Below, piece after piece: positions 6,257-10,839 of a DNA stretch of 64,000 nt. This DNA comes from an uncultured Nitrospiraceae bacterium (lineage in GTDB: Bacteria; Nitrospirota; Thermodesulfovibrionia; Thermodesulfovibrionales; SM23-35), in NCBI GenBank assembly GCA_963727775.1, contig CAVSHB010000002.1, positions 32,001 through 96,000 on the forward strand, read 5' to 3'. Made by a program: the position numbers and the translations under genes. How positions within the stretch are numbered: the stretch's first letter is position 1; the number at the start of each line of letters is the position of its first letter. The notes beneath the pieces were generated by a model that was not told the origin of the DNA, did no database searches, and worked only from the letters and a program-made list of their open reading frames with translations.

Positions 6257-6757
6257 TCAGTCTTTACGCCCTTTAAATATCTTTGCTTTTTTCTCTACCA
6301 TTGCTGCCAAATTTTGTCTGTAATCTTTCAGCCTTCGTGCCAGATTTGAATCTTTCTTTGCGATAATCTGGGCTGAAAGGATCGCAGCGTTCTTTGCTCC
6401 TGCTTTCCCTACCGCCATTGCAGCAACAGGGACACCGGCCGGCATCTGGACGGTTGAAAGAAGCGAGTCAAGTCCGCTCAGGGGTGAAGAATCGATAGGC
6501 ACTCCGATCACGGGGATGAGTGTATGTGCAGCAATAATTCCGGCCAGATGGGCTGCCATGCCTGCGCCTGCGATAATTACTTCAACGCCCTTTCCTTCAG
6601 CCTCCGATGCAAGTTTAATCGCGCGTGCAGGAGTCCTGTGTGCAGAGGCGATGGTCGTTTCATACGGGACCTTAAGTTTTTTTAGAATATCTTCTGCGCC
6701 CTCCATAATGGTATAGTCGGAATCACTCCCCATAATGATCAAAACTTGCGGTTTCAT
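6257..6757 (-). CDS. purE: N5-CAIR mutase / AIR carboxylase
   Basis: IMGSDSD, SAHRTP, AAHL, VQMPAGVPVA motifs. Confidence 0.95.
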   Translation of the reverse strand: MKPQVLIIMGSDSDYTIMEGAEDILKKLKVPYETTIASAHRTPARAIKLASEAEGKGVEVIIAGAGMAAHLAGIIAAHTLIPVIGVPIDSSPLSGLDSLLSTVQMPAGVPVAAMAVGKAGAKNAAILSAQIIAKKDSNLARRLKDYRQNLAAMVEKKAKIFKGRKD

Positions 6758-6776: not shown

Positions 6777-8033
6777 TTATGTTTTACCGATATCTTCTCT
6801 ATAATACATCCCATCAAAGTGAATATTATCCACTGCGGCATATGCTTTTGCTCTGGCTTCTTTCATATCCGCTCCGATTGCCGTTACGCTGATGATTCTT
6901 CCGTCAGAGGTTACTATATTATTATTGTTGAATAATGTATTTTCGTGGAACACAACCGTATCATTTATGGCTTTGGGTTTTTCAAGTCCTGTAATAATCG
7001 ATCCCTTATGGCATTCACCCGAGTGGTCCTTGGATGAAATCACAACGCTCACTGATGATCCCTGAGGCCATTCTATAGCCGTAGCAGACAGCCTTTCTTC
7101 AATGATAGATAACACTATTTCAGTAAAGTCCGTTTTGAGCCTTGGGAGAACAGTCTGTGCTTCCTGATCTCCAAACCCGCAGGTGACTTCAGAAATATGA
7201 ATGCGGTCATTGTCGACTGCGAGATCCACAGAGATAGCGCCTCTATATTTTATGCCGTCTGAGTTGAGCGCCTTCAACAGAGGTATCATTACCTTTTCCA
7301 TTATAGTAGACTCAAGTTCCCTCGTAACGATCTTTACAGGACTGTATGCGCCCACAATTTTAGATCCTGAACCGGTATCATCGCCTGTGTCCCTATAAAT
7401 ACACAAACTGGCAAGCGGCAGTATGGTATTCCCGTCGGTTAAGCAAACAAAGGAGAGCCTTTCACCCTTCAGACGTTCTTCAATAATCACTTGCTTTCCC
7501 GCATCGCCAAGGATCTTGTCTTTCATCATGAGCTTGAGAATATTTATTGCGCCGTCAACGGAAGAAGCAACAAATACACCGTCATCTCCGGAATGTCCGG
7601 CAGCCTTTATTACTATCGGGGAGCCCTTTAATCTCACATAATCCTGTGCATCGGGGAATGATGTAAATACTTTGTATTCAGCTACCGGCAGCCGATGAAG
7701 CCTTGTAAGGTCTTTTGCAAATATCCTGCTTGAACTTACCCGGACAGCGGTACTGTTCGGGCCTAATATCTTGCAGCCTTCTCTTTCGAACGCGGGTACG
7801 ATGTCTCGCGGGAAAAGTTTCTCTGAGCCGACGATTGTAAAGTCAATCCATTCATACTTTACAAAGTCAATTAATGCCTTAAAGTTATTGGGACTTACAT
7901 CTATGCATTCTGCTATTTCGGATATGCCCGCATTTCCGGGACAACAATAGATATTGGTGATATGTTTACTCTGGGACAGTTTCCATGCAATTGCATGTTC
8001 TTTGCCTCCTCCACCGATGATCAATACTTTCAC
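6777..8033 (-). CDS. purD: PurD-like ATP-grasp protein with degenerate catalytic motifs (function uncertain)
   Basis: Colinear with GAR synthetase (GGGGKEHAIAW, PGNAG, GAYSP, REDIG) but signature motifs altered; see findings. Confidence 0.75.
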   Translation of the reverse strand: MKVLIIGGGGKEHAIAWKLSQSKHITNIYCCPGNAGISEIAECIDVSPNNFKALIDFVKYEWIDFTIVGSEKLFPRDIVPAFEREGCKILGPNSTAVRVSSSRIFAKDLTRLHRLPVAEYKVFTSFPDAQDYVRLKGSPIVIKAAGHSGDDGVFVASSVDGAINILKLMMKDKILGDAGKQVIIEERLKGERLSFVCLTDGNTILPLASLCIYRDTGDDTGSGSKIVGAYSPVKIVTRELESTIMEKVMIPLLKALNSDGIKYRGAISVDLAVDNDRIHISEVTCGFGDQEAQTVLPRLKTDFTEIVLSIIEERLSATAIEWPQGSSVSVVISSKDHSGECHKGSIITGLEKPKAINDTVVFHENTLFNNNNIVTSDGRIISVTAIGADMKEARAKAYAAVDNIHFDGMYYREDIGKT

Positions 8034-8047
8034 TTGGGATAGCCTAT

Positions 8048-8650
8048 TTATTTCTTTTCCGTTACCCGTGTGAGGTAATCGGCAATGATTGAATCGTATC
8101 TTGACGTGTGTTTAAATACCTTTTTTGCAAGTCTTAATTTCGTAGTATAATCCAGATTGCCGTCATGGTTCTTCATTTCAGTCAGGATAGAGTCATAATC
8201 AGACGGGTCTACTATAACGACGACATCCTGAAAGTTTTTTGCCGCAGACCGCAGCATTGCAGGCCCGCCTATGTCGATATTCTCTATGGCCTCTGCAAAT
8301 GAAATCCCGGGCTTTGAGATAGTCTCTTCAAAGGGATACAAGTTCACAACAACCATATCTATAGTGTCAATCCCATGCTTCTTTATTTCCTCCATGTCTT
8401 TTGGATTGTCCCTCCTTGAAAGTAGCCCACCATGAATTTTGGGGTGAAGGGTTTTTACTCTGCCGTCAAGCATTTCGGGCGATCCGGTGTGTTCTGAAAC
8501 ATCTTTAACCGATAAACCCGCATCCCGTAAGGCCTTTGCAGTCCCGCCGGTTGAAAGTATCTTAATCCCCATCGACTGGAGACCCTTTGCAAATTCGATA
8601 ACTCCTTTCTTATTCGATACACTTATCAAAACTGTTTTAATCTTTGACAT
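8048..8650 (-). CDS. purH: IMP cyclohydrolase (stand-alone N-terminal domain of PurH)
   Basis: [38 protein letters not shown]; only 200 aa, no AICAR transformylase domain. Confidence 0.85.
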
Positions 8651-8658
8651 AATCCCTC

Positions 8659-9372
8659 CTATCCCTTAGCATTTCTTTGCGTCCCTTTCTTTATATATCC
8701 TTTTTCCATCATGCTTACATAATTGTTGTATCCTATAATGACGTGGTCCAGTACCTTTATCCCTATTATCTCCCCCGCATCAGCAAGCCTTTCAGTGATC
8801 GCAATATCTTCACGGCTCGGACTTGGGTCCCCGCTCGGGTGGTTATGGACAAATATAACAGACGCAGCGGACTCCTTTATTGCATCCTTGAAAGCCTCGC
8901 GCGGATGTATTAACGAATGAGTAAGGGTCCCTTCAGAGACACGACAGTCCCTGAGTATCCTGTTTTTTGCGTCAAGCATCGCACAGTGGAATACCTCTTT
9001 CTTCATGTTTTTCAGGCGCTGGTGATAGAAGGCATAAACGTCGTGGCCCGATGATAATGCAGGCCCTTTGTCGTAAGGTTTTTCATTAAGTCTTCTGCCG
9101 AGTTCAAAGGCGGCCTTGAGCTGAGCAACCTTTGCGTCACCCATCCCTTTGAAAGGAGCGAATTCCCCGGGAGACGCATTTTCGATCCTCTGTAAATCGG
9201 CAAAGGAGTTTAAAATCTCTATAGCAAGGTCAAGAGCGCTCTTGCCTCCTCCCCCGGTGCGGAGTATTATGGCAAGGAGTTGAGCATCTGAAAGATTATG
9301 GGCGCCATGTTTCAGAAGCCTTTCCCTCGGCCTTTCTCCTTCAGGCCATTTTTTAATACTCTGGTATCCCAT
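8659..9372 (-). CDS. radC: RadC/JAB domain protein
   Basis: RPRERL N-terminus, [21 protein letters not shown]. Confidence 0.95.
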
Positions 9373-9570
9373 AAAGTAGGAAATTTTAGCATCTGTAACA
9401 ATTATAGGTAAAGGATTAATTGACGTAAAATATGTATAATGATAGCATAATAATGCATAAACGGGATTAATTAAGCATAGCCGAACACAAAGAATTTTCC
9501 GTTATCATAAATATTTTGATATTTGTGTTTAGATCAAATTTTGATAGAATTGTATCGTTACGGAGGTAGT

Positions 9571-10005
9571 ATGAAGCTGAGCATAAATGAAAGGCATCTT
9601 AATAACAAAAAAGGATTCACACTTGTTGAACTCATTGTCGTTATGGTTATCCTCGGAATGCTCGCGGCCCTTGTCTTTCCCAAGTTACTGCCGAAGGTAG
9701 GAAAAGGCAAGCAATCCGCTGCTAAAACGCAGATAGAGCTGCTCGGCCAGGCACTCGACCAATTCAGGCTCGACACCGGAAGATACCCGACTACGGCAGA
9801 AGGTTTGAATGTCCTTCAAACAGACCCGGGTCTCCCCGGCTGGGATGGTCCATATTTGAAAAAGGGCGTACCGAATGACCCGTGGGGCACGCCTTATCAC
9901 TATGAATCACCCGGCACCCACGGGGATTATGACCTCATTTCATACGGAGCCGACCGCGCACCAGGCGGAGAAGGTGAAGCTAAAGATATCAACAGCTGGG
10001 AATAA
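9571..10005 (+). CDS. gspG: Type II secretion major pseudopilin
   Basis: G|FTLVE prepilin site, WDGPYL, DPWG, SYGAD...DINSW; ATG 9571 follows GGAGG RBS (track start 9523 likely too long). Confidence 0.92.
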   Translation: MKLSINERHLNNKKGFTLVELIVVMVILGMLAALVFPKLLPKVGKGKQSAAKTQIELLGQALDQFRLDTGRYPTTAEGLNVLQTDPGLPGWDGPYLKKGVPNDPWGTPYHYESPGTHGDYDLISYGADRAPGGEGEAKDINSWE

Positions 10006-10311: not shown

Positions 10312-10839
10312 ATGTTTAAGACAATTCATAAGATGAAAGTTGCGGAAGAGAGAGGTTTTACCCTGATTGAGTTGCTCATAGTCGTGGCGATTATCGGGAT
10401 TCTTGCAGCCATAGCAATTCCGGGGTATATCGGCATGCAGGAGAAATCTAAGAAGGGCGCCTTAATCAGATCTGCAACAGCGGTAGGTCCTGAATTACAG
10501 GGGTGGCTTGTAGCCTCTGGGAATCCAAATGGTGTCTTAATTGAAGTTGATTCGAACTTCAATGGAACGATTGACACTGCCGATGTGGCTGATTCCGCTC
10601 TTGTTGGTAAAGTTGCGAATCTATACGTTTCCGGAAAAATTGCTATGACTAAACCCGAAACGTCACCGTGGAACTCTACTCAGAACCTTTGGGTTTATGG
10701 CGGCGCCGCGAGTACACTGCCAAACGTAGCAGCAGTTAATGGGGCAGTAAGTCTCTATGATTTGTCGCCTGGTGTCGGGATCATAGCAATGGACTCTACG
10801 GGCAACGTCGCGTATTCGAAAGTTATAGGCGCTGATTAA
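10312..10839 (+). CDS. pilA: Type IV major pilin
   Basis: G|FTLIELLIVVAIIGILAAIAIP; own sigma54 promoter, strong RBS and terminator. Confidence 0.85.
   Translation: MFKTIHKMKVAEERGFTLIELLIVVAIIGILAAIAIPGYIGMQEKSKKGALIRSATAVGPELQGWLVASGNPNGVLIEVDSNFNGTIDTADVADSALVGKVANLYVSGKIAMTKPETSPWNSTQNLWVYGGAASTLPNVAAVNGAVSLYDLSPGVGIIAMDSTGNVAYSKVIGAD

Follow-up and report, generated by a model that had tools for sequence, protein, structure and literature searches.

The window analysed here comprises 64,000 nucleotides from an uncultured Nitrospiraceae bacterium of the order Thermodesulfovibrionales (contig CAVSHB010000002.1 of assembly GCA_963727775.1, a genome of 4 contigs and 3.43 Mb which is 96.8% complete and is called G000 below). 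On the reverse strand of this window lies a gene of the purD family, whose product we call the degenerate PurD, between purE and a short purH that codes for the inosine monophosphate (IMP) cyclohydrolase half only (Table 1). The three genes are closely spaced: 14 nt separate the stop codon of the purH half from the start of the degenerate purD, and 19 nt lie between the stop codon of the latter and purE. An AAGGAG ribosome-binding site precedes purE and a poor Shine–Dalgarno sequence the degenerate purD. An earlier note, which was made from the letters of the window without database searches, had placed the gene in a purH(N)–purD–purE operon, and this setting holds, with both flanking genes on the same strand. 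It had also described a full-length uninterrupted open reading frame (ORF) of 418 amino acids that is colinear with glycinamide ribonucleotide (GAR) synthetase. In agreement with this, all three Pfam domains match (GARS_N with 105 bits, GARS_A with 136 bits, and GARS_C with 86 bits), and on the purD model TIGR00877 the protein scores 361.9 bits at a cut-off of 288, which makes it a member of this sequence family. With the same model the other purD of G000 reaches 528 bits and the single purD of the sister families 565–607 bits, among the 150 best matches listed.

By alignment with 19 canonical orthologues and with the solved PurD structures 2YW2 and 1GSO we could recover all ten motif replacements which the earlier note had listed, and their window coordinates were verified by translation (Table 1). 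Residues are numbered here as in Aquifex PurD (2YW2), and their roles are in part taken from modelling papers. In a quantum mechanics/molecular mechanics study of 2YW2, ATP is described as being held by K103, K143, E185, E192, and K214, glycine by D212, R287, and E292, and Mg by E100 together with K214 (PMC8880213). For the human GAR synthetase, the structure paper states that the B-loop GLAAGK touches the gamma-phosphate, that R13 and R292 form an anion site, that E14 orients the ribosyl group, and that R385 is a candidate for binding the phosphate of phosphoribosylamine (PRA) (PMC2978367). At positions E100, K103, K143, E185, E192, D212, K214, E283, N285, R287, and E292 the window protein has S, R, K, E, R, I, R (or a gap), E, T, G, and E. 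Here E283 and N285 are residues which we take to be Mg ligands, as in ATP-grasp enzymes. In the ATP and Mg group E100, K103, K143, E185, E192, and K214, only K143 and E185 are unchanged; the glycine-binding group D212, R287, and E292 reads I, G, and E; and the B-loop GLAAGK(G) is absent. The PROSITE signature PS00184, quoted as R[LF]GDPEx[EQIM] in PMC3261824, is broken as well, the window protein having GFGDQEAQ with R changed to G and P to Q. Altogether, 84 of the 128 positions that are invariant among the 19 canonical orthologues are retained. The changes had been described in the earlier note as concentrated on the catalytic loops, and in the clade of degenerate copies the largest losses of conservation indeed fall on the active-site loops 145–153, 211–219, 221–229, and 278–286. 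Judged from these alignments, the pattern of replacements is not chance scatter.

Table 1. Coordinates of the degenerate purD, its rewritten motifs, and other features in the window and in related genomes
Feature	Position	Strand	Remarks
Degenerate purD	6777–8033	-	418-aa uninterrupted ORF, GTG start, weak Shine–Dalgarno sequence, PurD fold
GGGGKEHA (site of GGRE to GGKE)	7992–8015	-	translation check
GSEKLF for GPEAPL	7812–7829	-	translation check
VSSSR for LE(G/S)SK	7725–7739	-	E100 to S, K103 to R; alignment and translation
B-loop GHSGDDG for GLAAGKG	7578–7598	-	GLAAGKG in 19/19 canonical orthologues; alignment and translation
CIYRD for QDHKR	7389–7403	-	D212 to I, K214 is R or gap by alignment; alignment and translation
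GSGSKIVG for GPNTGGMG	7350–7373	-	alignment and translation
EVTCGFGDQE for E(F/Y)NxR(F/L)GDPE	7161–7190	-	R287 to G, N285 to T, E283 and E292 kept; alignment and translation
DHS for GYP	7020–7028	-	translation check
FHENT for FHAGT	6936–6950	-	translation check
DGRI for GGRV	6894–6905	-	translation check
purH N-terminal half (IMP cyclohydrolase)	8048–8650	-	200 aa; MGS domain and first 60 positions of AICARFT_IMPCHas model
purE	6257–6757	-	TIGR01162, 197 bits
radC-like gene	8659–9372	-	conserved upstream neighbour, same strand as degenerate purD
ORF with N-terminal FTLVELIVV or FTLIELLIV	9523–10005	+	one of two such ORFs
ORF with N-terminal FTLVELIVV or FTLIELLIV	10312–10839	+	one of two such ORFs
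AICARFT half of purH, G000	C2:149142–149951		430-aa protein, outside the window, ~110 kb from the window operon
Third-type purD, G000	C4:100783–102048		canonical
Remnant ORF of 433-aa purD, G000 contig C4	L001:1217–1396	-	beside the C4 purD, 59 codons
IS630 region, G000 contig C4	L001:2654–3898	+	beside the C4 purD
Third-type purD copies, G006	C10:47938–49191; C5:399054–400307		L048, L049
433-aa purD in two pieces, G017	C29:21149–22445		L067
Canonical window-type purD, G010	C106:759–2009		L028
Partial purD with internal TAA, G010	C106:4807–5379		same contig as L028

The degenerate copies compared here come from 46 genomes of 24 genera, all belonging to one Thermodesulfovibrionales family; nearly all genomes used are metagenome-assembled. 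While the eleven positions given above are kept in 19/19 canonical orthologues, D212 and R287 are found in 0/46 degenerate copies, E100 in 2/46, and K103 in 3/46, with arginine instead in 43/46. Retention is partial for K214 (13/46), E192 (14/46), E283 (22/46, with D in 16 further copies), and N285 (24/46), and high for E292 (36/46), E185 (43/46), and K143 (44/46). The B-loop residues G150-K151-G152 are kept in none of the copies, and 42 different loop sequences occur among the 46. Also the substitutes vary among the genera: C, T, G, S, N, V, or Y stand in for R287, and K, N, I, V, or P for D212. Recurrent changes are K103R (43/46) as well as H213Y and Y268S, each of which occurs in 83% of the 24 genera. 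A minimal set for ATP and Mg, that is K143, E185, an acidic residue at 283, and N or D at 285, is complete in 25/46 copies and incomplete in 21/46, among them the window protein with its T285.

Other parts of the protein are well kept. The copies retain between 60 and 110 of the 128 canon-invariant positions; 63 of these positions are still conserved to at least 80% across the 24 genera, and at 27 the canonical residue is no longer in the majority. The 27 lost positions cluster at 144–153, 212–215, 223–225, 268–272, and 286. The best-kept domain is the N domain with a mean top-residue frequency of 0.77 in the degenerate versus 0.81 in the canonical set. Among the residues proposed to contact the phosphoribosyl moiety, E12, H13, N34, H363, and T366 are each present in 45/46 copies and R379 in 31/46. 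In the alignment of the degenerate copies 15 columns are invariant and 64 nearly invariant, and these are spread over all domains.

An AlphaFold2 model computed on the 46-sequence alignment is confident (predicted local distance difference test 88.8, predicted template modelling score 0.89), with dips at residues 71–80, 141–150, 211–230, and 331–340, which are the rewritten loops. In a Foldseek search the best match is Aquifex PurD with ATP (2YW2) at a template modelling (TM) score of 0.92 and 39% sequence identity. The TM scores are 0.83–0.94 to thirteen PurD structures and 0.6–0.76 to biotin carboxylases, as expected for an ATP-grasp fold. A prediction of a three-chain complex with PurH-N and PurE gave a score of 0.00, which carries no weight either way. 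The best 120 database clusters show 53–94% identity, and in 110 of them both D212 and R287 are missing; every source-given name among the 120 is phosphoribosylamine--glycine ligase. As for public sequencing runs, no RNA run was listed, and in the 20 DNA runs the shared fraction of words does not exceed 0.19. By its sequence the degenerate PurD is a member of the PurD family; judged by the missing substrate and phosphate contacts it should not be classified with the GAR synthetases.

The search for a second, canonical purD, which the earlier note had proposed, was successful in G000. The gene on contig C4, which we call the third type, codes for 424 amino acids, has all the canonical motifs, and shares 34% identity with the window protein. 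Most genomes of the window's family carry two purD genes, and a second purD-type match is present in 43/46 genomes with a degenerate copy. A further type has 433 amino acids, an insertion before the GYP motif, canonical catalytic motifs, and 33–36% identity to the window protein. We searched 40 related genomes for purD. In 12 other families of the order a single purD was found in 16/16 genomes; it has the canonical motifs and 46–54% identity to the window protein, and in several genomes it adjoins purH and/or purE. Likewise, in an order-wide sample nearly all families other than the window's own have one purD match, among the matches listed. Within the family, the orthologues of the window gene share 41–65% identity and stand always in the order radC–purH(N)–purD–purE where the flanks are assembled.

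In a tree of 60 rows (a quick IQ-TREE search from which the fragment L067 was left out, and which has long branches) the window protein falls within a clade of 23 family orthologues (Shimodaira–Hasegawa-like approximate likelihood ratio test, SH-aLRT, 99). Here the 22 degenerate copies group together (SH-aLRT 100), and their sister is the copy of G008, which is canonical and has a short branch. In G008 and its congener G057 this is the only purD, the 433-aa type being absent. The terminal branches of the degenerate copies are long, 0.14–1.84 changes per site. Both extra purD types, the 433-aa and the third type, sit on long stems and their placement is flagged as unreliable. From the orthology and synteny with the single purD of the sister families, from the tree, and from the state of G008 and G057 we conclude that the lineage's ancestral purD is the window gene and that the canonical copies are additions. 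The earlier note had called the gene a PurD paralogue. In this point it has to be corrected, as the gene is not the product of a duplication but the ancestral syntenic orthologue of the only purD of the order, and the canonical copies are the newcomers.

The donor of the 433-aa purD was not identified among the best 120 database clusters, which all belong to the same clade (78–100% identity) and whose given organism names are all Nitrospirota or Nitrospirae. At E ≤ 1e-110 this type was found in 0/120 other Nitrospirota genomes, a weak negative because the sample held no known carrier. In G017 the 433-aa purD is in two pieces, comprising residues 1–329 and 343–417 in different ORFs, which is either a frameshift or an assembly error (genome 85% complete, 5% contamination); if the split is real, G017 would hold only the degenerate PurD. 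In G010 a canonical purD of the window type is present besides the degenerate copy. It groups with G035, a genome of another family (SH-aLRT 99), and the same contig carries a partial purD with an internal stop codon; this may be a foreign contig, as the contamination of the genome is 6%.

The other purD has been exchanged in G000 and G006. Behind the 433-aa purD of G023 and G021 stands a metF-like gene and/or a small gene of PilZ type. The place that is held by the 433-aa purD in relatives is occupied in G006 by a purD of the third type; two nearly identical copies of the third-type gene are seen in this genome, with terminal branches of 0.036 and 0.0055. On contig C4 of G000 a PilZ-like gene with 69% identity to that of G021 is abutted by a 59-codon ORF, which over its last 48 residues matches the C-terminus of the 433-aa purD with 75% identity (E 3e-22). 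The third-type purD lies ~100 bp from this remnant on the opposite strand, and a transposase of the IS630 family (273 bits) follows. The locus looks like the in-place replacement of one purD by another. As the 48-residue remnant lies beside the third-type purD and IS630, we conclude that the 433-aa purD was lost in G000 once another purD had arrived. The degenerate PurD persists in G000 despite this turnover.

An orthologue of the window gene was found in 49 of 57 genomes of the family and none of the 49 has an internal stop codon; the two off-frames of the 46 degenerate genes contain on average 33 and 30 stops. The ratio of nonsynonymous to synonymous substitution rates (dN/dS) was calculated with NG86 for within-genus pairs at 0.05<dS<1, the many pairs with saturated dS being left out. 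Its median is 0.178 for the degenerate PurD (23 pairs, range 0.108–0.266), 0.138 for purE (19 pairs, 0.076–0.330), 0.110 for purH-N (22 pairs, 0.051–0.273), and 0.073 for the 433-aa purD (12 pairs, 0.045–0.092). In the same genome pairs the dN of the degenerate PurD is in the median 3.0 times that of the 433-aa purD (23 pairs, range 0.48–4.17). The earlier note had named a dN/dS near 1 and frameshifts as signs of a decaying pseudogene, and the gene has neither. GTG or TTG stands at the aligned start of 17/46 degenerate and 0/19 canonical copies, which would fit a lower expression of the degenerate copies without proving it. In 8 of the 57 genomes the degenerate PurD was not found. For four of them (G022, G063, G001, and G062) PurH-N was also not found (0/4), so the locus is probably unassembled there and is not counted as lost; the others (G047, G049, G055, and G069) are 60–74% complete. 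On this comparative evidence, purifying selection has retained the degenerate PurD across one Nitrospirota family, and it is evidently not a decaying pseudogene.

We suggest, with a probability of roughly 0.6, that the degenerate PurD is not a GAR synthetase but a folded protein of the purine pathway which binds a ligand without catalysis. GAR synthetase activity is very unlikely because the glycine ligands D212 and R287, E100, and the GKG of the B-loop are lost and because a canonical purD is present in at least 43/46 genomes. Simple decay is ruled out by the intact frames, by dN/dS values far below 1, by the conserved core, and by the survival of the gene through two turnovers of the other purD. 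A non-catalytic role is likelier than a new conserved chemistry because the replacements do not converge and because 21/46 copies are without the full minimal ATP/Mg set. The protein thus combines the features by which pseudoenzymes are recognized, missing key catalytic and substrate residues and retention under purifying selection. The earlier note had argued for a retained non-canonical role, and in view of the second canonical purD, the intact frames, and the low dN/dS this is still the best reading. Of the roles it had offered, namely scaffold, regulator, or altered ligase, a non-catalytic one is favored over a new ligase since the residues at the lost sites differ among the genera.

The proposal can be put as follows. 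In the one family which also carries a second purD, the ancestral, operon-resident purD no longer has the residues for holding glycine, Mg, and the gamma-phosphate. GAR would be synthesized by the other purD, in G000 presumably by the third-type gene on C4. The degenerate PurD appears to have kept the pocket between the N and C domains that the paper on the human enzyme proposes for the ribose-phosphate of PRA (E12, H13, N34, H363, T366, and R379) and possibly a part of the adenine-nucleotide site (K143 and E185). It could bind a phosphoribosyl or an adenine-nucleotide ligand and might act as a sensor, as an escort, or as a partner of its operon neighbors; an escort could, for example, hand the labile PRA from the native PurF to the foreign PurD. 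A more specific and rather doubtful form of this proposal is a dedicated adaptor, a fossil of the native GAR synthetase which docks to the native PurF, holds PRA or acts as a sensor of a phosphoribosyl or adenine nucleotide, and in this way links the pathway with a PurD gained by horizontal transfer. If this were true, a bacterial pseudoenzyme would organize a purinosome-like hand-over, and it would be explained why the gene has outlived two successive incoming purD genes.

Several points speak against a non-catalytic ligand-binding protein or weaken its basis. The minimal ATP/Mg set survives in 25/46 copies, so that ATP binding or some ATP-dependent chemistry is possible in a part of the clade. 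With a dN/dS ~1.3–2.4 times that of the neighboring true enzymes, the constraint on the gene is enzyme-like in strength. In 3/46 genomes with a degenerate copy (76–93% complete) no second purD was seen. The retention of K143 and E185 may be structural, as in any case 63/128 canon-invariant positions are conserved to at least 80%. The argument from the ligand pocket uses sites that were proposed or modelled in the cited papers, with no solved PRA complex, and the non-catalytic assignment itself is drawn from sequence and model. Finally, apparent gains of conservation in surface stretches of the degenerate clade are confounded because the degenerate set comes from one family and the canonical set from thirteen, which differ in phylogenetic depth; they are not used as evidence.

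Among the alternatives, the one which fares best, unlikely as it is, is an altered ATP-grasp enzyme that still uses ATP and ligates a different acid or nucleophile. The fold and the lid domain are intact in the model, K143 and E185 are nearly always kept, and the recurrent K103R, H213Y, and Y268S look like directed change. However, there is no convergence at R287 or D212, the B-loop has 42 versions in 46 sequences, and the minimal ATP/Mg set is incomplete in 21/46 copies including the window protein. One version of this idea is a PurK-like synthetase of N5-carboxyaminoimidazole ribonucleotide (N5-CAIR) that would feed the adjacent purE. G000 has no purK over the cut-off and the degenerate purD lies directly upstream of purE, whose product presumably belongs to class I (N5-CAIR mutase) according to its SAHRTP and AAHL motifs. 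Yet the PurK models hardly recognize the degenerate PurD (NF004679 with 20.8 bits versus 326, NF004680 with 15.2 bits versus 327), and purK can be dispensable at high CO2, as argued in PMC3261824. Moreover, purK over the cut-off was found in 0/41 genomes of the order (G000 and the 40 relatives), which include the 16 with only a canonical purD; the lack of purK is therefore not linked to the degenerate PurD, and the PurK-like version was set aside as having no differential support. As a separate observation, the missing purK and the class I-type motifs of PurE would fit a non-enzymatic formation of N5-CAIR at high CO2, which is discussed in the same source.

Improbable in our opinion is a prozyme-like partnership in which the dead protein forms a heteromer with the product of the active purD and activates or stabilizes it. 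Dead paralogues that activate live relatives are known, for example, the prozyme of the trypanosome S-adenosylmethionine decarboxylase (AdoMetDC), and a canonical purD co-occurs with the degenerate one in at least 43/46 genomes. Nevertheless, G000 and G006 have exchanged the 433-aa partner for a purD of another lineage, and each type is only 33–36% identical to the degenerate PurD. The branches of the degenerate PurD in these two genomes (0.52 for G000, 0.61 for G006) are not longer than that of the sister G012 (0.55), which keeps the 433-aa type; the degenerate and the canonical purD are never adjacent; and in E. coli PurD is monomeric.

Very improbable is a GAR synthetase of weak or conditional activity as a backup of the other purD, for which the TIGR00877 score and the names of all named relatives could be quoted. 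Against it stand the absence of D212, of R287, and of the GKG in the B-loop from 46/46 copies each and of E100 from 44/46, all of which are invariant in the 19 canonical orthologues, and the broken PS00184 signature (G-F-G-D-Q-E instead of R-[LF]-G-D-P-E). Just as improbable is that the protein has no function, being a slowly decaying relic or a frame kept open only for translation through to purE: the long terminal branches, the frequent GTG or TTG starts, and the weak Shine–Dalgarno sequence in the window would suit this, but dN/dS is 0.11–0.27 in 23/23 unsaturated pairs, no internal stops occur over a family-wide divergence down to 41% identity, the invariant and nearly invariant columns extend over all domains of a confidently predicted fold, and the redundant 433-aa purD was in fact deleted in G000.

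The neighboring purH deserves a remark. A short purH-N is present at all loci of the degenerate clade. A full-length purH stands at the equivalent place in G008, in G036, and in several other families, and in G035 and G032 purH is also short. A search of G000 for PurP (PF06973) gave no match; this genome encodes the AICARFT half of purH at another place (Table 1), so the degenerate PurD is not needed to explain the formylation of aminoimidazole carboxamide ribonucleotide (AICAR). Farther upstream, the window contains two ORFs on the forward strand (Table 1) with N-terminal segments which, by reading of the translations, look like signal motifs of type IV pilins or of pseudopilins of type II secretion.

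How does the degenerate PurD compare to known proteins? With canonical PurD (EC 6.3.4.13; Aquifex 2YW2, E. coli 1GSO) it shares the three domains, the length, the fold, and the place in the pur operon, and it descends from it by orthology; it differs in the replacement of D212, R287, E100, GLAAGKG, QDHKR, and GPNTGGMG and in the presence of a separate canonical purD. PurK and PurT have the same superfamily and the same layout of N, ATP-grasp, and C domains, but the degenerate PurD is not a member of these families (15–28 bits at cut-offs of 326–339). The AdoMetDC prozyme of trypanosomes displays the same pattern of a kept fold, lost catalytic residues, and selected retention. So does the herpesviral pseudo-GAT, which is derived from the purine enzyme formylglycinamide ribonucleotide amidotransferase (FGARAT) and has kept the enzyme fold, has lost catalytic residues, and is retained by selection (PMC7605207). 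Unlike both, the degenerate PurD represents the first gene of the lineage, which a homologue from outside has displaced.

The nearest precedent found are the extra PurD-like proteins of the haloarchaea Haloarcula marismortui (rrnAC0307) and Halorubrum lacusprofundi (Hlac_1553), which their describers judge not to be true GAR synthetases (PMC3261824). As described there, they are likewise encoded by a second gene beside a normal purD; their R[LF]GDPE motif is disrupted, their Mg sites are gone, and their P-loop has diverged. In contrast to the degenerate PurD, which has all three domains, resides in a pur operon, is ancestral, and is found under selection in 46 genomes of 24 genera, the haloarchaeal proteins are without GARS_N and come from two genomes; this comparison is made by description. 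The fused PurE–PurE' of Methanobacteria also contains a divergent second copy of a purine enzyme, PurE', that is nevertheless required, and a structural role is raised by the authors (PMC3261824). It differs by its fold, by the fusion to an active partner, and by the complementation data available for it, whereas the degenerate PurD is known here from its sequence. Judged in part by title and among the papers listed, a description of the degenerate PurD was not found in the literature on PurD pseudoenzymes, ATP-grasp purD paralogues, bacterial purine pseudoenzymes, and purine metabolism of Thermodesulfovibrionia, as far as it lies outside subscription journals.

With the degenerate PurD there is now a definite candidate for the factor that has long been suspected to be missing in the transfer of PRA between PurF and PurD. 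PMC3261824 cites a coupling of PurF and PurD in vitro which was too weak, and suggests that a further protein may be required. For Nitrospirota the finding also has a practical side: reconstructions of the pathway could credit the wrong gene, because the databases use the name phosphoribosylamine--glycine ligase for these proteins, although both D212 and R287 are missing from 110 of the 120 best clusters. The 46 orthologues with their 60–110 of 128 retained invariant sites offer a graded series for the transition from an ATP-grasp enzyme to a pseudoenzyme. This Thermodesulfovibrionales family would provide a clear example from nature of a core enzyme whose resident copy, rather than the incoming one, abandons catalysis after the arrival of a homologue and is retained for another purpose as long as the family exists.

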